64,000 nt of DNA from Candidatus Paceibacter sp. (GCA_020724845.1 DYGE01000001.1:58218-122217); one strand, 5' to 3'. Shown: positions 41,651 to 61,159, numbered from the stretch's first letter. Numbers and translations: made by a program. Notes: generated by a model not told the origin, from the sequence alone.

Positions 41651-41718
41651 TTGACAAATTGTACAATCTATGCTATAGTTCTCTGGTAAAGTAGCCGTCC
41701 CCTGTGAGGGGCGTTTTT
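41651..41718 (+). promoter_or_regulatory. Promoter TTGACA-17-TATAGT followed ~15 nt later by an intrinsic terminator hairpin (cgtcccctgtgaggggcg + TTTTT) in the 3D-domain gene leader
   Basis: -35 at 41651-41656, -10 at 41674-41679, hairpin at 41696-41713 then T-run; the ATG of the next gene is at 41731. Confidence 0.5.
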
Positions 41719-41730
41719 ATTAGCAAATTA

Positions 41731-42186
41731 ATGCAAAATATCAAAAAACAACTCTTAAAAGGACTCAACTATACCTTAGCCCTGGGAATCGCGGCTAACT
41801 TTGGTTCGCTCGCCCTTCCTGAAATGCCGAGTATTTTAGCCGAGCCGGCATTTTTTGAATCAGTGGCAACCACCTCTCTGGAAGCCCATTCGGCGACTAC
41901 TAGGGCGCTGGAAGTAACTTTAACGGGTTATTCTTCTACGCCGGATCAGACAGATGATACGCCCTTTATCGCGGCGTCCGGCAAGCACGTTTACGACGGA
42001 ATGATTGCGGCTAATTTCCTGCCTTTCGGAACCAAAGTGCAAATACCGGAACATTTCGGCGATAAGATTTTTGTGGTGGATGACAGGATGAATCGCCGAT
42101 ATTCCGACCGGGTAGATGTCTGGTTCCCGGATAGAAATTCCGCCATCAAATTTGGCATAAAAAAATCAACAATTATAATTCTTTAG
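41731..42186 (+). CDS. 3D-domain protein (MltA-like DPBB fold; cell-wall-associated)
   Basis: Signal/TM, then TGYSSTPDQTDDTPFIAASG ... VVDDRMNRRYSDRVDVWF with three conserved Asp. Confidence 0.7.
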   Translation: MQNIKKQLLKGLNYTLALGIAANFGSLALPEMPSILAEPAFFESVATTSLEAHSATTRALEVTLTGYSSTPDQTDDTPFIAASGKHVYDGMIAANFLPFGTKVQIPEHFGDKIFVVDDRMNRRYSDRVDVWFPDRNSAIKFGIKKSTIIIL

Positions 42187-42187
42187 A

Positions 42188-42214
42188 AAACCTCCGCTTA
42201 CGCGGGGTTTTTAA
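42188..42214. terminator. Bidirectional terminator (cctccgcttacgcgggg + TTTTT)
   Basis: Between the convergent 3D-domain gene and the small minus-strand ORF. Confidence 0.6.
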
Positions 42215-42239: not shown

Positions 42240-42506
42240 TTATTCTTTTATATCTGACGCGTTAAGGTAGCCGGAGCTAAAATTATATTTTAAATTTTCA
42301 AGAAATTTTCTCCCGTCTTTGAAAAACAGCCGCCCTCGCCTCCCGGGAACTTCTCCGCTCAAATAATCAAGAATCCCTTCCGACTTTAAATTAGCGGTTA
42401 AATTTTCATCTCCCCCGCAAACAATTTCTCCATTTGCTAACTCGCACTTGGCAATCACCTCCTGCGAGCCGTCATTATTCAATTTGTAGAATTCTACGTA
42501 TGGCAT
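42240..42506 (-). CDS. Small hypothetical protein (88 aa) translationally coupled to the upstream kinase-like gene
   Basis: ATG 2 nt after the kinase stop codon; the TTG-extended version would overlap by 16 nt. Confidence 0.45.
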   Translation of the reverse strand: MPYVEFYKLNNDGSQEVIAKCELANGEIVCGGDENLTANLKSEGILDYLSGEVPGRRGRLFFKDGRKFLENLKYNFSSGYLNASDIKE

Positions 42507-42508
42507 TG

Positions 42509-43279
42509 TTATCTCGGCGCCCACATTAAGATATCTAATGACGATTCAGGGATAGCGCCGTATTGATTTATAACAGATCGAATCGCTTTTAACCGCGCGA
42601 AAACCTGGTTAACCGCTCCTCTTTCTAAAAGCTCCGTGAGTAATTCGTCTAACAGGTCTCGCATCTTCTGATCCAGCGCTAACCCGTTTATCTTCTCTTT
42701 CAGATCTTCTGGGACAGGTAGGTCAAGCACGCCTTTATATTCAAATTCCCTTGGAACATAGTCCCAGACAAAACTATGCCCGTGATCAATCGCGTAAATT
42801 TGGTTGCCTTTAAGCAGGTAGTTATTAAAACCCCGATCCGTATTGCCGATTATGTAGTCAAATATGCAAAGCTTCAGTATTTCTTCTTTCGGTATATTTT
42901 CGCGACCTTTGCGGCCAAGCTGCATAGGCAGCAAAGAGTTTTCAACAAATTGCTGTAAGCTTCCAAGCTTTCCGGATATTGACCTTATAATAGTCGGCGG
43001 CACGAAATTGAAACCAAGAAAGCGATCTACCAGATAAGCCGCCCGCTCGTTGCCAATGAATTTAATCCTGTCTCCGTAGTCCTGGTGAGTGTGCGGCTTA
43101 AATACCCCTAGGCCATCGTTCTTCAATTTCACTAATTCCGCGTCGCCGGTAAATCCGCCAAGCAATTCAACGGTTCTTTCTACTTCTCTGCTTTGCAAAA
43201 TTTCTTCCTCCGGAGACGCGAATTGAGTCGGGGTTTCCCGATGATATGACTCTTTTTTTGAAGCAGTTTCAAATGCCAT
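42509..43279 (-). CDS. PI3K/PI4K-like kinase-fold protein
   Basis: Catalytic-loop-like IGNTDRGFNNYLL and activation-loop-like AIDHGHSF (compare PI3K GDRHxxN / IDFGH); upstream Lys region VFKPHT. Confidence 0.55.
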   Translation of the reverse strand: MAFETASKKESYHRETPTQFASPEEEILQSREVERTVELLGGFTGDAELVKLKNDGLGVFKPHTHQDYGDRIKFIGNERAAYLVDRFLGFNFVPPTIIRSISGKLGSLQQFVENSLLPMQLGRKGRENIPKEEILKLCIFDYIIGNTDRGFNNYLLKGNQIYAIDHGHSFVWDYVPREFEYKGVLDLPVPEDLKEKINGLALDQKMRDLLDELLTELLERGAVNQVFARLKAIRSVINQYGAIPESSLDILMWAPR

Positions 43280-43351
43280 GATTTCATCATACTATACCGA
43301 ATTCCCACTGGAAAGATGCCGCAAAATATTATAAACTGACGCAAATACCGT

Positions 43352-44509
43352 ATGATAGAATTTGAAATTCTCAAAAAATCCAAAAAGAGCCGCGCCCGAT
43401 TAGGGCTTTTAAAAACCCCGCACGGGACCGTAGAAACTCCCGCTTTAGTGCCAGTGGCCACGCAGGCGGCAGTCAAAGCTTTAACCACTGAAGAAGTCCT
43501 TAAAACTAAGAGCCAGATTTTGATTTCCAACACTTTTCATCTTCATCTGAAACCAGGCGAGAAGTATCTCAAAGCCAATGGCGGAATACACAAGTTCATG
43601 AATTGGCCAAGGCCAGTGATGACCGATTCCGGCGGATTCCAAGTATTCAGTTTAGGGTTCGGCCATGATCTGAATGTAGGAAAAATCCTAAAATACTTCC
43701 CTAGCCAGAATGGCGAAGAAAGGCGTGAATTATTAGATAAAAACATCCAGCCAAAAAAGGTTAAGATTACCGACGACGGAGTTTACTTCCGTTCTCCATT
43801 AGACGGGAAAGAATTATTCATAGGTCCGAGGGAATCAATCAAAATACAAGAGAAAATAGGGGCTGATATGATTTTTGCTTTTGACGAATGCACTTCGCCA
43901 CTCTCAACTTATGAATATGTGAAGAACTCGCTGGAACGCACGCATAGATGGGCGAAAGTATGCCTGAAGGCTCTAAAAACGGATCAGGCGCTTTTTGGCA
44001 TCGTTCAAGGTTCGCGTTTTAAGGATTTGCGGGAAGAAAGCGCTAAGCTCATAAATTCCCTTGATTTCCCAGGTTACGGCATCGGCGGAGATCTCGGACA
44101 AGATAAGCAAACAATGTCTAAAATCCTGAATTGGGTAATGCCCTTATTAGATGAAGGCAAACCCAGGCACCTTTTAGGAATCGGCTATTTGGAAGATATG
44201 GAATCAATTATCAAAAGCGGCGTAGATACTTTTGACTGCACCGTTCCCACTCATTATGGAAGGCGAGGCATCGCCTTCACTAGCCAAGGGAAATTGGATT
44301 TAAGAAAATCACAATTCTTAACCGATAAAAAACCGCTTGATAAAAATTGCGGCTGCTATGTCTGCGAAAACTATAAGAGAAATTACATCTGCCACCTATT
44401 CAAGGCCAAAGAAATTACTCCGCTTAGCTTACTGACTTTTCATAATCTCTACTTCTTTAATACCTACGTAGAAAAAATAAGGGAAAAGATAAAAGAAGGG
44501 AAAATTTAA
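43352..44509 (+). CDS. tgt: Queuine tRNA-ribosyltransferase
   Basis: TIM-barrel TGT motifs and C-terminal zinc site CGCYVCENYKRNYICHL. Confidence 0.9.
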   Translation: MIEFEILKKSKKSRARLGLLKTPHGTVETPALVPVATQAAVKALTTEEVLKTKSQILISNTFHLHLKPGEKYLKANGGIHKFMNWPRPVMTDSGGFQVFSLGFGHDLNVGKILKYFPSQNGEERRELLDKNIQPKKVKITDDGVYFRSPLDGKELFIGPRESIKIQEKIGADMIFAFDECTSPLSTYEYVKNSLERTHRWAKVCLKALKTDQALFGIVQGSRFKDLREESAKLINSLDFPGYGIGGDLGQDKQTMSKILNWVMPLLDEGKPRHLLGIGYLEDMESIIKSGVDTFDCTVPTHYGRRGIAFTSQGKLDLRKSQFLTDKKPLDKNCGCYVCENYKRNYICHLFKAKEITPLSLLTFHNLYFFNTYVEKIREKIKEGKI

Positions 44510-44582
44510 CGTATTAAGCCTAGTCCCTTGCTATTGTTTACTATTGGCTGTTTTTTTAATATACTCCCAGTAGCAAATCGAC

Positions 44583-45566
44583 ATGGCAACTGGAATGTTA
44601 TCGGAAAATCCAGTAAGGGAAACTACGCTGGCGGTTCTCAAGCGGGCAAGGAACGTAAAAATTAGGAAGAGGCCTATTAAAGAATTGGCCGCTAGCTGGG
44701 CGCAGAGATCCCTGCGCCTGCCTGCTTGGCGGAGCGACATGCACTTCAGCGCGCCCCACGACGAAGAAGCGATGTTGGATTATCTGATCATACTTGATTC
44801 TTTAAACTTCTGTTTTTGGAACCCGGAAGGCAAACGGTGGCAAATCCTCTACAACGGCAAGCTTTACGACGGTTATTTCGCTCTTTCTCTCGCCTTAAAA
44901 GATTTTTTTGAAGCATATCCCGACAAAGCTAACCTTAAGTATTTTTCAAATATTTCCTTTAAAAAATTCCGCGAACTTCTTCAAGGAGGCAAAAACCTCC
45001 TGCTACTAAAAAAGCGCTGGGAAATCGTAAAAAAAGTAAGCCGACACTTGGTTGAAAACTACAAGGCAAGCTCCAAGCAATTCGTGCTTTCCGGCAACCG
45101 GCAATTCTCTATTTTAATTCCTAAAATCGCGGCTGAACTCTTCGCTTTTGACGATCAGGCTATCTATCAAGAAAGCAATGTCTATCTTTGGAAACGAGCG
45201 CAGATTCTGGCAGTGGACATCTGCGCGGCCCTAGGCGGGCGCGGAACCTATAAGTTCAAGGACCCCGGATATCCAACCACTTTCCCTGATTATCGCATTC
45301 CTCAAATCCTGGAACACCTGGATATTATTGAGTATTCGCCAAAGCTGAAAGGGTTAATAAAGAATCGCAGCCTTCTTCCGAAGGCTTCGCGAGAAGAGAT
45401 TGAGATTCGCGCCGCCACTGTTTGGGCGATAGAATATCTGAAAGAAGCGCTGAAAAGGAAAGGCAAAGAACTGCGATCTTTTGAAATAGATTGGCTGCTT
45501 TGGAATGAAAGCAAACTTGGGAAACTGCGGCTCCCTCATCATAGAACAGAAACTTGGTTTTACTGA
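44583..45566 (+). CDS. DUF2419-like queuosine salvage protein (Qng1 homologue)
   Basis: 327 aa with FCFWN and C-terminal LW/HHRT segments, immediately downstream of tgt. Family assignment is from memory. Confidence 0.55.
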   Translation: MATGMLSENPVRETTLAVLKRARNVKIRKRPIKELAASWAQRSLRLPAWRSDMHFSAPHDEEAMLDYLIILDSLNFCFWNPEGKRWQILYNGKLYDGYFALSLALKDFFEAYPDKANLKYFSNISFKKFRELLQGGKNLLLLKKRWEIVKKVSRHLVENYKASSKQFVLSGNRQFSILIPKIAAELFAFDDQAIYQESNVYLWKRAQILAVDICAALGGRGTYKFKDPGYPTTFPDYRIPQILEHLDIIEYSPKLKGLIKNRSLLPKASREEIEIRAATVWAIEYLKEALKRKGKELRSFEIDWLLWNESKLGKLRLPHHRTETWFY

Positions 45567-54861: not shown

Positions 54862-57800
54862 TTACCTGGCTAACGGGCTTAATAGGCGAATTATATCTTC
54901 GCGCCTTTGGGAAAGCGCCTTCTTCAAATAAGGCGCTTCCCCGCCTGACTTTATCGCCGCTGAATAAGTTTCAACAGCATCTAGAAGCTTTGCTCTATCT
55001 CGGTAACTAGCTTCTCCGATTGATAATATGGCTCTCAATTCGGAAATCCTTTCTGTCAAATCGCGTGTTGAATCTTCACCGTCCTTGAAGCCGGCAGATG
55101 TAATAATCTCATCAATAAAAGCGTCATCAATATCTTCCAATTTTTTAAGCATTTTTTGGAGAAGAATCTGGTTTTTAACTATTACCCTCCCCTCTCTAAC
55201 TTCCAAAAGATTATGATAGGCCTCATTGACCGGCTTCCCGGCGAATTGAGGGTTAGCCAAAACCTCTTGCAGTTGAGAAATTCCAAAATGCTCCGGGAAA
55301 CCCTTATATCCGCCCCTTGCTCTGGAAAATAAACTAGCTCCATTATCAATAAAAGCAACTTTGTCTCCTTTAAACATCAAATTCCAAGCCGTTCGGTCAT
55401 ATTGGCCAAGTAGGGCGTCTACCAAAAGGCCTTCCTGAATTTTTTGATTCTGGTGATGTTCTTCCGGCAATGTCAGGCCGCCTTCCTTCCAGCCCTCCAA
55501 AAGCTCCATTTTTAATTTCGGCACCCTTTCAATGGCCACTAAGTCAGTTTTGGGAGTAAGAAGTCCGGCTCTTTCAAGAAATTTCTGCCCGACAAAATCA
55601 GCTTGTACGGTATGGCGCGGACCGCCTTTCAACAAGAATTTTTTGCCTTTCTTATCTTCCCAAAGCTGAAGACGATGAGTGCCAATATAATTACCCCGGA
55701 ATTCCTGAATAAATTTCAATCCCTCAAGCGGATTTTGACTATTAATTCTTATCCGCTGTTCCGGGTCAAGTTTGGGGGAGAAATTTCGCATAACCGCGTG
55801 CTCTACCGTCCAGGCAAGCAGTTGTTGATCTATAGATTTTGGTTTACTTTCCGGTTTTAATTTGCCTTTTTCGTCTAGAATAAAAAGTGCGGGCTTATAG
55901 ATACTCTTTGGACGACCCTCTAAGAAATCCAATTCTCTTGATGGCCCTGAATCTCTAAGCCGACGGGACAATTCTTTTCGGGTCGGATTGCTGGAAGAAA
56001 ATAACATGATTTTTTCATCAACCTCTTGCGAGGATATCCCAATGCCTCCAGTCTCTGCCAAAGATCTTATAGCGAACTCCGGTATTGAGCCAGCATATCC
56101 GGTATCAATAAAAGCAAATTCCAAACCGACTCCATTTTCCTTGAGATACCGGGCTACCTTACTTTGATTCTTTTGGGACGCCATAGATCTAGTCACTACT
56201 ACATATTTTAACTCTTTTCTTTTTAACCCGATTTCATTGGCTTTGATGGCTGTAAAGAAATACCGGCCATCGCGTCCAAAAACCGCCAACTTTTCTGCTC
56301 CGAAATCTTCCAACTTTTCTTTGGCTTCCCAATAAAGCGGCACGTCCTTCTCCTCCACACTTTTATACATTTGCAAATTCTCCTGGTAATGACCAATAAT
56401 TTCTTGTAATTTTTCAAAATACGAATCAGGATACGATTTATCATCACGATTAGCCAGATCTTGGGCAAGGTAATAGCGGATTTTTTCCGCTAAAAGAGTG
56501 CGGAAATCCGGGATCTGCCTACTTCTTTTAAGGGTTGGATGATAAAGCAAAAAAGGATTAGCGCTTTCTGGCATATCTAGAGGCGTTTCCCACCGTACTC
56601 TTTCAATGAAATCTACAAGCTTATCTAGATTTAAGGCGAGATGGGCGATTGATTGCCCGTCTGGAGTCTCTGAATCTACTGACCTACCTAGGAAATACTG
56701 CAGAGCCCTAATTTCACTTATGGCGTTTTCCGGGCGATTTTCCAGAGACGCCAGCGACAACGCTCTCGCGTATGATAGAGCAGCCATGCCGTACGCTTCT
56801 TCATAATTCACCTCTTCCGGAAGATTAGATTCTAAATCCTTCTCCTCCATTACCCCGAAAAGAAAATTTAAATAACTGTCAACATTTTCAAATCCGGCGT
56901 TACGCCTAGAGATAATTCCAAAAAGACCGGCTAAATAATTTTCCGGGGTCAATACTACCCCTTTTTCAAGCTTCGGAGTAAAGCGTCCATAGAAATTTAT
57001 TAACTTCCCAGCTTCCCAGGCGCTTGACGACGGTTGGGGTATAGGAGGTAAAATGGGACCTTCGTCAAAATCGTCATAGTCACCGTCATAGTTAAAGCCA
57101 TAGCCATCGTCATAGACATCATCTTCGCCCATGTCTTCAGCAGGCATATTTTCTACTTCTTTTCTCAACTCCTCCAACCTATTTTTTTCAACGGATTCCT
57201 CAAATTCCTCAAATTCTGGTTTTTCTTCGCTTAAAGTTTCGTTCCAGGAAGATATCGTTTTTGACAGTATTGCAAGCCATCCAGAAAATTCCGGATTATT
57301 TTCAGCCGTCTCCACTAAAACTTTTTTTGCTTCTTCTGTCCCTAATATGCCCGCAAGCGCGGAGGCTGCCACGCGTAAATCGCTATCTAGGTGCATCTTA
57401 CGCGCGTAGTCTTCGGTAACCGCATTATTAATAAACTGGACTATAGCCGGAGCCAAGCTCGGATCTTTTGATCTTCTTAATAATTCTAAAATTTGATGTA
57501 GATTGCTGCCATCAACGTTATCCAAAATAGCTGGTTTTTCTAGAATAGTTGCCGCAAATTTTGCTGAATCTTTGTAGCCGAGGCTAAGGTAGAGGTTAAT
57601 ATACCAATAAATCCCCTCGCCCCTTGATGATGCTGCTGAGTTAATTTTCTTCTCAAAAAACTGCTTAAACGCTGGCCCTGCCTTTTTCATATCAAACCAA
57701 TACTCTCGCTCGACCAAATAAAGGTTCTTACCGCCTTGCGCTCTAGAAAATTTATTTAAAAAAGCTCTATAACTTGTGTAATCTTCCCAAGCAAATCCAG

Positions 57801-57930
57801 TTCCGGAAGAGGAGAGTAGAATCTCAATCCTTCCCTGTAGCAAATCCTCAAACTTCTGCTTTTCTTCCGGAGAAAGCCCCAGTTCAGATTCCCGCTTAGG
57901 CGCTTTATCAAATTTTTCCCTGACCTCCAT
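54862..57930 (-). CDS. Large multidomain protein: N-terminal HEAT-like repeats, acidic linker, C-terminal PI3K/PI4K-like kinase-fold domain
   Basis: 1022 aa. C-terminus LLGQYDRTAWNLMF and AFIDNGASLF align with the 256-aa protein at 42509..43279 and resemble the PI3K catalytic DRHxxN and DFG loops. N-terminal helical repeats are HEAT-like. Confidence 0.6.
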   Translation of the reverse strand: MEVREKFDKAPKRESELGLSPEEKQKFEDLLQGRIEILLSSSGTGFAWEDYTSYRAFLNKFSRAQGGKNLYLVEREYWFDMKKAGPAFKQFFEKKINSAASSRGEGIYWYINLYLSLGYKDSAKFAATILEKPAILDNVDGSNLHQILELLRRSKDPSLAPAIVQFINNAVTEDYARKMHLDSDLRVAASALAGILGTEEAKKVLVETAENNPEFSGWLAILSKTISSWNETLSEEKPEFEEFEESVEKNRLEELRKEVENMPAEDMGEDDVYDDGYGFNYDGDYDDFDEGPILPPIPQPSSSAWEAGKLINFYGRFTPKLEKGVVLTPENYLAGLFGIISRRNAGFENVDSYLNFLFGVMEEKDLESNLPEEVNYEEAYGMAALSYARALSLASLENRPENAISEIRALQYFLGRSVDSETPDGQSIAHLALNLDKLVDFIERVRWETPLDMPESANPFLLYHPTLKRSRQIPDFRTLLAEKIRYYLAQDLANRDDKSYPDSYFEKLQEIIGHYQENLQMYKSVEEKDVPLYWEAKEKLEDFGAEKLAVFGRDGRYFFTAIKANEIGLKRKELKYVVVTRSMASQKNQSKVARYLKENGVGLEFAFIDTGYAGSIPEFAIRSLAETGGIGISSQEVDEKIMLFSSSNPTRKELSRRLRDSGPSRELDFLEGRPKSIYKPALFILDEKGKLKPESKPKSIDQQLLAWTVEHAVMRNFSPKLDPEQRIRINSQNPLEGLKFIQEFRGNYIGTHRLQLWEDKKGKKFLLKGGPRHTVQADFVGQKFLERAGLLTPKTDLVAIERVPKLKMELLEGWKEGGLTLPEEHHQNQKIQEGLLVDALLGQYDRTAWNLMFKGDKVAFIDNGASLFSRARGGYKGFPEHFGISQLQEVLANPQFAGKPVNEAYHNLLEVREGRVIVKNQILLQKMLKKLEDIDDAFIDEIITSAGFKDGEDSTRDLTERISELRAILSIGEASYRDRAKLLDAVETYSAAIKSGGEAPYLKKALSQRREDIIRLLSPLAR

Positions 57931-57937
57931 AAGCCGA

Positions 57938-58302
57938 TTACTTTAAATAAGATTTTATCTTGCTGATAACCTGTTTCATGGAAAAATTCGCTTTTACCAT
58001 GTAGTCGTCAGCCCCCAAGTCCATCGCTCTTTTAACGTCGGCATCCTGGCCGAGATTGGATAAAACAAGTACCGGAATATTTTTCCATGCCTCACCGGCT
58101 TTTATTTCCTTCAAGAAATCAAAACCGTTTTTTGATGGAAGCATTAAATCAAGTAAAATAAGATCGAAGGAATCGCCCATCACCTTTCCCGTCATAAGCA
58201 ATATCAACCTCAAAACCCTCCCGCTCCAAGGCGGTTTTATAAACCATCACCAAATATTTATCATCTTCCACCAAGAGAATCCTCTTTTTTTCTTTTGCCA
58301 TA
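57938..58302 (-). pseudogene. CheY-like receiver domain gene interrupted by a frameshift
   Basis: Frame A MAKEKKRILLVEDDKYLVMVYKTALEREGFEVDIAYDGK then stops. Frame +1 continues SFDLILLDLMLP...DYMVK through the rest of the receiver. The switch is at a GGGAAAGG run near 58190. Confidence 0.5.
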
Positions 58303-58807: not shown

Positions 58808-61159
58808 TCATTGCCCATGGCACTTTTTATATTTTTTACCGCTGCCGCACGGGCAGGGGTCATTACGGCCAACTTTTTCGAAATTGTTGTTTTTCCCGGT
58901 ATCATAGATCCCGCCTGGATGCTTGGCTTCCAAGTTAACGCCGTTGCCTAATTCTTTCTGCTCATTTCGGGCCTGCTTTAATTTCTCCGAATTTTCGCTC
59001 ATCCACTTTTCAAAATCCTCAAGCATTCTCTGAAACAGTATCCGGCTTTCGCGCTTGTATTCCACTAAAGGATCATGCTGGCCGTAAGCTCTAAGGCGCA
59101 CCGATTCGCGGAGCGCTTCCATGTCTTCCAGGTGATTCATCCAGAAGCTGTCCAGTACCATCAAAATCTGCGGATGAGCCTTTTCCTTCATTAGCGTCTC
59201 CCTCTTTTCGTAAATGGACAGTCTATGCTTGTTCAAGATATCGTCATAATCCAAAAGATGCTTTCGCCCGTCAAAACTGAAGCCTTCTACCCGCGATTGC
59301 GCTTGGGAAACCGCCTTGGAAACCATTCCCGACTCTATAGGCGTGTCTTCCGGAACATCCAGAGTTTCCATTAAACTTTTTATTCTCCCGCCGCCGAAGA
59401 TGCGCATCAAGTCATCTTCCAGAGACAGGTAAAATTGAGATGAACCGGGATCCCCTTGCCTTCCGGAACGTCCGCGAAGCTGGTTATCAATTCTCCGGGC
59501 ATCGTGTCTTTCAGTGCCAATCACGTGCAGGCCGCCCAGATCTTTCACTTTTTCGCTCTGCAGTATATCCGGAGGATTTCCGCCAAGCACGATATCCACT
59601 CCCCGGCCGGCCATATTGGTGGCGACCGTCACCGCGCCCACCTTTCCCGCTTGAGCGATGATGGAAGCCTCTCGTTCATTATTTTTAGCATTCAAAACCT
59701 CGTGCCTCACTCCGGCGCGATTCAAATATTGGGACAGCAATTCGTTTTTTTCTATGGAGATCGTGCCAATCAGCACCGGCTGCCCTTTCTGCTGGCGCCT
59801 TTTAACCTCTTCCGCTACTGCTCGGAATTTCGCGTCAGCTGTTTTGTAGATTACATCCGGCAAATCCTGCCGCTGCACCGGCCTATTGGTCGGGATGCCG
59901 ACCACCTGTAATTTATAGACCTTATCAAATTCCTCCGCGGAAGTTTGGGCCGTGCCGGTCATACCGGCTAGTTTTTTATAAAGACGGAAATAATTCTGAA
60001 TGGTAATTTGGGCGTAAGTCCGAGACTCCTGCTGTATTGGCACGCCTTCTTTCGCCTCCAACGCTTGATGCAGCCCTCCAGAATATCGTCGCCCCGGCAT
60101 CAGCCTGCCGGTATTTTGGTCCACGATAATGACTTCGCTATTTTTTACCACGTAATCTTTGTCGCGCTTAAAAAGGGCTTTTGCTTTCAAGCTTTCTTCC
60201 AAATAATGGGTTAGCCGCAGATTTTCTGGGTCGTAGATATTTTTAATCTTTAAAGACTTTTCCACTTTATCAATCCCGGATTCCAGAATCTGAACAGACC
60301 GGAATTTTTCATCTACCAGATAGTCTTCATCTTGATTTAAAATAGCGGCTACCTGCTTGAATATTTTATAAAAATTGCTGGACTCGGCATCCGGAGCAGA
60401 AATGATGAGCGGCGTTCTCGCTTCATCTATTAAAACGCTGTCAATTTCATCAATAATGGCAAAATTGTGCCCGCGCGATTGGACTTGTTTATCTTCAGAG
60501 TGAGCCAGGTTATCCCGTAGATAATCAAAGCCAAACTCATGGTTGGTTCCGTAAGTGACATCCGCTTCATAGGCCTCCTTTCTGGAAATCGGCCGCAGAT
60601 ATTCTTCCTGAATCCTAAAACTTCCAGTCGAGTCCCTTTCTTTGTCTAATAAATCGTCAGCTTGTTTTGATATGTACGCCGGATCGTACATCAGCGCCCC
60701 TTGATGCACTAAACAAGCGACTCTCAATCCTAATAGGTGATAAATTTGACCCATCCAAACAGCGTCTCTTTTTGCCAAGTATTCATTGACCGTAACCACA
60801 TGCACCCCCTCGCCTGCCAAGGCATTTAAATAAATCGGCGAAGTGGACGATAAAGTTTTACCTTCTCCGGTAGCCATCTCCGCTATTTTACCTTCATGCA
60901 AAGCCATGCCGCCCATCAACTGTACGTCAAAGTGCCGCTGTTTCAAGGTTCTTTTAGCGGCCTCCCTTACCAGAGCAAACGCTTCCGGAAGCGCCATATC
61001 CAAAGAAAGTCCGTCCGCTACCCTACTCCGCAAGTCCCGGCTTTTTTCCTGAAGTTCCGCGTCGCTTAACTCCCCAATCTCTTTTTCCAGATTGTTTATT
61101 TCCTCAACTCGTTTTTTCAATTTTTTGGTCTGATCAAATAAGAAATTAAAAAACTTCAT
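58808..61159 (-). CDS. secA: Preprotein translocase ATPase SecA
   Basis: Walker A MATGEGKTL, DEAD-like motor domain, C-terminal zinc finger CPCGSGKKYKKCHG. Confidence 0.97.
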   Translation of the reverse strand: MKFFNFLFDQTKKLKKRVEEINNLEKEIGELSDAELQEKSRDLRSRVADGLSLDMALPEAFALVREAAKRTLKQRHFDVQLMGGMALHEGKIAEMATGEGKTLSSTSPIYLNALAGEGVHVVTVNEYLAKRDAVWMGQIYHLLGLRVACLVHQGALMYDPAYISKQADDLLDKERDSTGSFRIQEEYLRPISRKEAYEADVTYGTNHEFGFDYLRDNLAHSEDKQVQSRGHNFAIIDEIDSVLIDEARTPLIISAPDAESSNFYKIFKQVAAILNQDEDYLVDEKFRSVQILESGIDKVEKSLKIKNIYDPENLRLTHYLEESLKAKALFKRDKDYVVKNSEVIIVDQNTGRLMPGRRYSGGLHQALEAKEGVPIQQESRTYAQITIQNYFRLYKKLAGMTGTAQTSAEEFDKVYKLQVVGIPTNRPVQRQDLPDVIYKTADAKFRAVAEEVKRRQQKGQPVLIGTISIEKNELLSQYLNRAGVRHEVLNAKNNEREASIIAQAGKVGAVTVATNMAGRGVDIVLGGNPPDILQSEKVKDLGGLHVIGTERHDARRIDNQLRGRSGRQGDPGSSQFYLSLEDDLMRIFGGGRIKSLMETLDVPEDTPIESGMVSKAVSQAQSRVEGFSFDGRKHLLDYDDILNKHRLSIYEKRETLMKEKAHPQILMVLDSFWMNHLEDMEALRESVRLRAYGQHDPLVEYKRESRILFQRMLEDFEKWMSENSEKLKQARNEQKELGNGVNLEAKHPGGIYDTGKNNNFEKVGRNDPCPCGSGKKYKKCHGQ

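Follow-up and report, generated by a model that had tools for sequence, protein, structure and literature searches.

The window analyzed here, a stretch of 64,000 nucleotides (nt) from Candidatus Paceibacter sp., carries on its minus strand a two-gene module in which a compact kinase of 256 amino acids (aa), related to the type II phosphatidylinositol 4-kinases (PI4KII), is followed at once by a gene encoding an 88-aa protein, hereafter the partner. The adjacency of the two genes is near-strict over deep divergence and, because it is strict, deep and exclusive and is accompanied by a coupling geometry, a direct functional and probably physical partnership between kinase and partner is very likely. 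As for what this partnership does, we favor, with about an even chance of being right, an obligate phospho-switch in which the partner serves the kinase as regulator, as substrate or as both. The module is made of the following elements.

42509–43279, minus strand: kinase gene, 256 aa, ATG start, TAA stop
42507–42508, minus strand: spacer of exactly 2 nt between the kinase TAA and the partner ATG, read from the sequence
42240–42506, minus strand: partner gene, 88 aa, ATG at 42506, stop at 42240–42242

A sequence-only reading of the window had described a 256-aa kinase-fold protein followed after 2 nt by an 88-aa open reading frame (ORF), and its coordinates and quoted protein sequence are correct. 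The partner protein begins MPYVEFYKLNNDGSQEVIAKCELANGEIVCGGDE; an alternative GTG at 42524 would extend it to 94 aa, and homologues begin at the ATG. The 2-nt spacing suggests translational coupling.

The 88-aa ORF is a real gene, far beyond a chance ORF, since its homologues form 39 clusters and a profile search recovers 195 representatives. Members of the 39 clusters (53–67% identity) are nearly all 83–92 aa long and are all unnamed or annotated as "hypothetical", and those recovered by the exhaustive profile search (E ≤ 1e-3) are almost all stand-alone proteins of ~80–110 aa. One match, a 2331-aa NHL-repeat protein (P0139), was judged from its sequence to be a repeat-driven false positive. 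The partner has no recognizable domain, as had been claimed: it has no match in Pfam, NCBIfam, PADLOC or PHROGs, and a Pfam search across 173 family members (the 39 and a further 134 diverse sequences) returned no family match. LPD18, which scored weakly in three of the 39 members and in none of the 134, was dismissed as noise. Searches of PDB sequences with partner profiles gave nothing, and no viral contig encoding the partner was found.

The pairing was established from both sides. In a kinase-first scan using one genome per species (22 loci), the partner gene lies directly downstream, on the same strand, in 10 of the 11 close kinase loci; the paired loci mostly come from metagenome-assembled genomes (MAGs) labelled as Patescibacteria-group, and the unpaired exception (L013) is from Harrisonbacteria. 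Distant kinases from Chloroflexi, Acidobacteria, Aminicenantes and Oligoflexales are found without the partner. In a partner-first scan of metagenomes (69 loci), 12 short-contig or fragmentary loci and one whose partner is cut by the contig start (L091) were set aside, and a kinase gene lies directly upstream in 54 of the 56 informative loci, the other two (L071 and L090) having upstream room but no kinase. The sequence-only reading had proposed conservation of the gene neighborhood across related genomes as a check, and in both sets the partner is indeed found beside the kinase, distant members included. The most divergent kinase homologues, at 30–35% identity, keep the partner, and the distant partner relatives P0144, P0180 and P0190 all sit directly downstream of PI3_PI4_kinase genes (the contigs of P0192 and P0206 are too short to show the upstream gene). 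The gaps between the two genes are mostly −38 to +34 nt in related loci, six of which have a 4-nt overlap of the ATGA type. The description of the pair as an isolated, tightly coupled bicistron is thus supported by its anatomy and by its pairing across genomes.

The surroundings of the pair vary by lineage, with RRF-RseP/HisRS, SMC/RNase R, SufS-SOD/HtrA, ABC transporter/EF-P and SufS/ATP synthase among the flanks, and MsrB/tgt in the window. Clustering of the flanking ORFs from 81 loci showed that the largest shared family occurs in six loci of one lineage, and 136 non-redundant neighbors fell into 127 different Pfam families, those listed being housekeeping families. Integrase, transposase and defense families are absent from the 25 most frequent of these 127 families, a phosphatase occurs in only two of the 136 neighbors, and no lipid- or sugar-metabolism gene was found to recur beside the pair. 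Across the 81 loci there is no recurrent third gene, and no HipB-like gene was found. The module is therefore exactly two genes, set within housekeeping DNA, sometimes duplicated in tandem and occasionally lost. Tandem kinase–partner–kinase–partner arrays are seen at L033:954-3258 and also at L029 and L039. At the locus of one of the three distant partner relatives (L105:3-5870), the partner domain makes up the N-terminal part of a 419-aa protein, whose gene and the upstream kinase gene share a 4-nt overlap; downstream of it come two small ORFs and then a protein of >1086 aa in which a 2'-5' RNA ligase-like domain is present, a context unlike the housekeeping ones seen elsewhere.

These data bear directly on the proposal that the two genes are merely packed into one operon, with no direct functional link, in very compact genomes. 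Unrelated housekeeping genes do lie co-directionally at very short gaps in these genomes, for instance in L001, L006, L099 and L100. However, every flank changes by lineage while the pair persists, from 100% to 30% kinase identity and with partner relatives down to E 1e-5; the pair duplicates as a unit; and the kinase disappeared from L090 together with half of the partner gene. We regard simple operon packing as very improbable.

The kinase is a compact type II PI4K-like enzyme that falls outside the HipA family. It exceeds the gathering score of Pfam PI3_PI4_kinase (PF00454), 27.1 bits, with a score of 35.6 bits, and a profile of its homologues searched against PDB sequences retrieved PI4K2B and PI4K2A as best matches (E 2e-14 to 6e-13), followed by the FAM20 kinases. 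Similarly, in fold comparison of its AlphaFold model (predicted local distance difference test score, pLDDT, 87.4), PI4K2A is nearest and FAM20 next, HipT and HipA ranking far lower. HipA_2 of Pfam was reached only below threshold and HipA_C had no Pfam match in the kinase. The PADLOC matches, PDC-M03A and PDC-M66A, cover only 24–42 residues of the catalytic loop (E 6e-5 to 3e-4), so that with the anti-phage systems of PADLOC-DB there is no full-length match, the likeness being restricted to the kinase catalytic loop and absent from the partner. The residues predicted to be functional are as follows.

K61: ATP-binding residue
E78: helix-C residue
D148-R149-x3-N153: catalytic loop
D165: metal-binding residue, in AIDHG
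GSLQQF: hinge

K61, D148, R149, N153 and D165 are retained in 46–48 of 48 paired kinases. Loss of catalytic residues had been named as an observation that would count against a kinase-based module; these residues are intact, and the kinase is apparently catalytically competent. Neither the kinase nor the partner contains a hydrophobic segment, and the kinase appears to be cytosolic, without a signal peptide.

The likeness to PI4K2A and PI4K2B (PF00454) extends from the family score and the fold to the catalytic Lys, the DRxxxN loop and the metal-binding Asp of IDxG, with 231–240 kinase residues aligning with PI4K2A chains of 353 and 483 residues. The window kinase differs from these enzymes in being bacterial and only 256 aa long, in lacking the palmitoylation/membrane insert and any evident lipid context, and in having an obligate small partner. 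PI4KII enzymes bind membranes through a palmitoylated Cys-rich insert; direct reading of the 256-aa sequence revealed neither a Cys cluster nor an insert. To our knowledge, no obligate small protein partner has been reported for PI4KII.

Among bacterial kinases, the nearest named family is SCO1664 of actinobacteria and Chloroflexi (NCBIfam TIGR03843), which is likewise tightly linked to a small uncharacterized protein, DUF3090. The window kinase scores 56.7 bits against this family and other paired kinases 55–87 bits, far below the cut-off of 172.4. The paired kinases are thus a bacterial sister clade of the SCO1664 family, closest bacterial-type relative of the eukaryotic type II PI 4-kinases. 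The two arrangements differ in that the partner described here lies downstream rather than upstream of its kinase, is unrelated to DUF3090 and has no consistent phosphatase next to it. Kinship of the partner with DUF3090 was rejected on an hhalign probability of 0.17%, and genes for DUF3090 and for a histidine phosphatase are both absent from the window. A Chloroflexaceae MAG (L018:1910-4531) contains the triad histidine phosphatase, DUF3090 and a true SCO1664 kinase, the latter scoring 268.1 bits. In actinobacteria, SCO1664 has been reported to be invariably linked to biosynthesis genes for mycothiol, an inositol-containing thiol (PMC4255298).

Such relatives raise the question of whether the substrate is a protein at all. 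According to one proposal, the kinase would phosphorylate a non-protein substrate, for example an inositol lipid or other scavenged lipid, a sugar or a metabolite, and the partner would be an adaptor presenting the substrate or setting specificity. The best matches by fold and by sequence include the lipid kinases PI4K2A and PI4K2B and the xylose kinase Fam20B, and SCO1664 is reportedly tied to mycothiol genes in actinobacteria (PMC4255298) and stands beside a histidine phosphatase/phosphomutase-type enzyme. Yet the kinase has no Cys-rich palmitoylation insert of the PI4KII type, hydrophobic segments are absent from both proteins, the neighborhood contains no recurrent gene of lipid or sugar metabolism, and a strict association with a single small, well-folded protein is more characteristic of protein–protein regulation. 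We therefore consider a non-protein substrate improbable, if distinctly less so than mere operon packing.

In comparison with FAM20C, FAM20A and Fam20B, and with bacterial CotH and CtkA, the window kinase has no signal peptide and its partner is small and is not a kinase. Distant kinase relatives in Acidobacteria and Aminicenantes MAGs occur as three to five tandem paralogues, and several single-copy relatives start with signal-peptide-like hydrophobic stretches and may be exported FAM20-like kinases; the partner is absent from all of these (L020:2131-8658 and L026:1047-6426, and also L019, L023, L025 and L027).

The partner was modelled with high confidence by AlphaFold2 (pLDDT 90.5) as an N-terminal set of three strands followed by two helices, with a loop between them, and by a strand at the C-terminus. 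Its motifs are YKLxNDGSQ in the first hairpin and DGxKFLExLKxNFxSGYLNA[ST][DE], which spans the second helix and the C-terminal strand. In an alignment of 180 sequences, the most conserved positions are G44, D64, G65, F68, L69, L72, Y80 and A83. Among ~161 sequences, 102 have Ser and 42 have Thr at position 84 (~89% Ser/Thr); at position 85, 83 have Asp and 40 have Glu. A motif of the S-x-E type is not conserved in the partner alignment.

A short kinase gene followed by a gene for a small protein invites comparison with hipJS, in which a short core kinase precedes a putative antitoxin of ~100 aa that resembles HipS, and HipB is missing (PMC8262856), and with HipBST. By analogy, the pair could be a split-kinase toxin–antitoxin or abortive infection system, the kinase being a toxin that would arrest growth by phosphorylating an essential protein and the 88-aa partner a HipS-like antitoxin that would bind the kinase and block its active site. 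The kinase-first order and the downstream partner of ~100 aa are shared with hipJS. HipS is built from an N-terminal β-meander, helices and a C-terminal strand (PMC10627512), a layout that the partner model broadly resembles. Also in keeping with this proposal, the pair is found in differing genomic contexts across lineages, tandem copies exist, the pair can be deleted (L090), an orphan partner is known (L071), and the kinase matches Pfam HipA_2 and kinases of PADLOC candidate systems weakly.

However, no such resemblance was detected in sequence or profiles. The window kinase has no HipA_C domain, and searches with the partner detected no likeness to HipS or to the HipA N-subdomain: 1) a Foldseek search of the PDB with the partner model returned no match below E 0.2, HipS being absent from the top 50; 2) Couple_hipA never matched in the 39 and 134 family members; and 3) hhalign of partner profiles of 39 and 180 sequences against the N-domain of HipA from E. 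coli K-12 gave a probability of 0.2%, with a HipA-side profile that is shallow and rested almost wholly on redundant E. coli fragments, the sole stretch aligned being KFLENL against NFFDNL. Compared with HipBA and HipBST, there is no HipB-type helix-turn-helix gene, and only 72 nt separate the kinase from the divergent tgt. Further points against a toxin–antitoxin role are a kinase outside the HipA family, an apparently active kinase without a partner (L013) together with the common occurrence of unpaired relatives, the absence of integrase, transposase or defense families from the 25 most frequent neighbor families, and the failure to find viral copies.

The relative rates of evolution of the two proteins also argue against an antitoxin. 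Averaged over all pairwise comparisons among 48 unique pairs, partners are 55% identical and kinases 37%, and the partner is more conserved than its kinase in 99% of 1128 comparisons, a further difference from hipJS and HipBST. In the tandem array at L033, the kinases are 54% identical (~62% at the DNA level) and the partners share 93% identity in both protein and DNA; kinases that have diverged are thus shown to operate with a partner that is essentially unchanged. Cognate antitoxins would be expected to show the opposite pattern to such a slowly evolving and interchangeable partner. Collectively, these data lead us to rate a toxin–antitoxin or abortive infection system as unlikely, although less so than the other alternatives. 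As for the HipBA-type or anti-phage format suggested in the sequence-only reading, it finds no support in a locus without HipA_C or HipB, with housekeeping neighbors, no viral relatives found and a slower-evolving partner. The pair is not a HipBA toxin–antitoxin system, and the same reading had itself observed, rightly, that kinase family and gene order are unlike those of canonical HipBA.

Comparison of paired and unpaired kinases points to where the two proteins could meet. R79 and L83, in helix C, and I98, in the next strand, are conserved only in paired kinases; at positions 79, 83 and 98, unpaired relatives have I, E/R and E. This hydrophobic and basic patch of the N-lobe is a plausible docking site for the partner.

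For the phospho-switch that we favor, the following mechanism can be proposed, in which we infer that the two proteins bind physically, where the partner docks, that it is phosphorylated and that it has any target downstream. The two genes would be co-transcribed and translationally coupled, leading to roughly matched amounts of both proteins. The partner would then dock on the kinase, probably on the N-lobe near helix C (R79, L83, I98), and would gate the kinase, accept phosphate from it or do both, thereby forming a self-contained phospho-switch. The top candidate acceptor would be position 84 of the partner, a Ser/Thr followed by Asp/Glu. Since it is more conserved than the kinase, the partner probably also contacts a conserved cellular component, and would thereby itself be the output of the switch.

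Several observations weigh against this mechanism. The characterized relatives of the kinase, PI4KII and Fam20B, act on lipids or sugars besides proteins, and a protein substrate is therefore not assured. The Harrisonbacteria kinase (L013:3198-5197) has intact catalytic motifs and no partner, and in L071 an intact partner gene stands as an orphan, lacking an upstream kinase. Comparison of L090:615-3123 with L003:1535-5255, which share the same SMC-flanked context, shows a deletion in the former that spans the kinase and reaches into the partner gene, removing its N-terminal half. The pair also appears sparse in Patescibacteria, with only 39 partner clusters at 90% identity; together with the loss in L090, this indicates that the pair is accessory rather than core, a status which suits a toxin–antitoxin or conflict role equally well. 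Finally, the near-identity of the L033 partners reaches synonymous sites, with differences at just 12 of the 86 third codon positions, and is therefore due in part to gene conversion confined to the partner gene and not to selection. Two of these loci have further features of their own: the L013 kinase has two small ORFs of 105 and 95 aa at its flanks, both Cys-rich and zinc-ribbon-like, and the remnant in L090 consists of the last ~30 partner residues fused to unrelated sequence.

In the literature, no functional study of the kinase–partner pair, of SCO1664 or of DUF3090 was found. The kinase domain itself belongs to a known Pfam family; apparently undescribed are the family of the partner and the near-obligate association of its members with a clade of PI4KII-like kinases. 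A broader claim, which we hold with slightly less assurance than the phospho-switch, is that the partner founds a new domain family, absent from Pfam, NCBIfam and the PDB, obligate to the PI4KII-sister kinase clade and apparently largely confined to the Candidate Phyla Radiation (CPR), and that the pair constitutes either a new phospho-switch or a new family of kinase toxin–antitoxin systems distinct from HipS and HipB. Patescibacteria (CPR) have tiny genomes and their signaling is barely known; here, a conserved and self-contained pair stands annotated as "hypothetical protein". If the partner is a HipS-like inhibitor, the split-kinase toxin–antitoxin principle would reach beyond the HipA family; if it is a substrate or effector, the pair would represent a new bacterial phospho-switch. 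The system is tractable, with two small soluble proteins, confident models and mutational targets in the kinase (K61, D148 and D165) and in the partner (S78, Y80 and S84).

The boundaries of the module in the window are marked by three further elements.

42192–42207, no strand assigned: GC-rich hairpin with A-/T-tracts on both sides, between the partner ORF and the convergent ORF 41704–42186
43286–43314, minus strand: promoter-like site, TTTCCA, 17 nt, TATGAT, with 9 of 12 consensus matches, from a consensus scan alone, in the 72-nt kinase/tgt intergenic region
43352–44509, plus strand: tgt (Pfam TGT; queuine tRNA-ribosyltransferase), divergent, 72 nt from the kinase ATG

The pair had been described as bracketed by a bidirectional terminator on one side and a divergent gene on the other. 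The divergent gene is tgt, beginning at 43352. With respect to the terminator, the plus-strand half of the claim stands, a terminator scan calling the hairpin on that strand; the minus-strand half is plausible but weaker, the hairpin folding as minus-strand RNA at −15.9 kcal/mol (z −3.79) with flanking A- and U-tracts. The hairpin is a probable terminator of both transcription units. On the other side of the pair, the −10-like TATGAT (43286–43291, minus strand) ends 6 nt from the kinase ATG (43279), and, if this site is a real promoter, the leader of the bicistronic mRNA would be absent or very short. Rfam gave no match around the kinase/partner region.

The sequence-only reading had further proposed a second, paralogous kinase domain in the window, and with it a lineage-specific expansion. 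The ORF concerned is the following.

54862–57930, minus strand: 1022-aa ORF with a kinase-like C-terminus, no Pfam or NCBIfam match

Its C-terminal ~130 residues contain a PI3/4-kinase-like catalytic core (YDRTAWN ... FIDNG), which scores 19–20 bits with the family profile, and phmmer found no similarity between this ORF and the window kinase. Judged on these scores, the 1022-aa protein is a remote superfamily relative and not a recent paralogue; it follows that a lineage-specific expansion is without support. The ORF lies directly downstream of a 91-aa ORF (57938–58213, minus strand), which matches only positions 38–110 of a response-regulator receiver model, and of SecA (58808–61159, minus strand).

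As for the immediate neighbors of the pair, a queuosine salvage gene (Q_salvage) directly follows tgt (window 43352–45566, plus strand), and the two suggest a compact queuosine-salvage pair. The convergent ORF on the opposite side (window 41704–42186, plus strand) encodes 160 aa and has no Pfam match. Its PHROG matches are weak, the best being to a family of unknown function (5e-7), and include an L-alanyl-D-glutamate peptidase family (E 0.0026); the product may be a cell-wall-acting protein.
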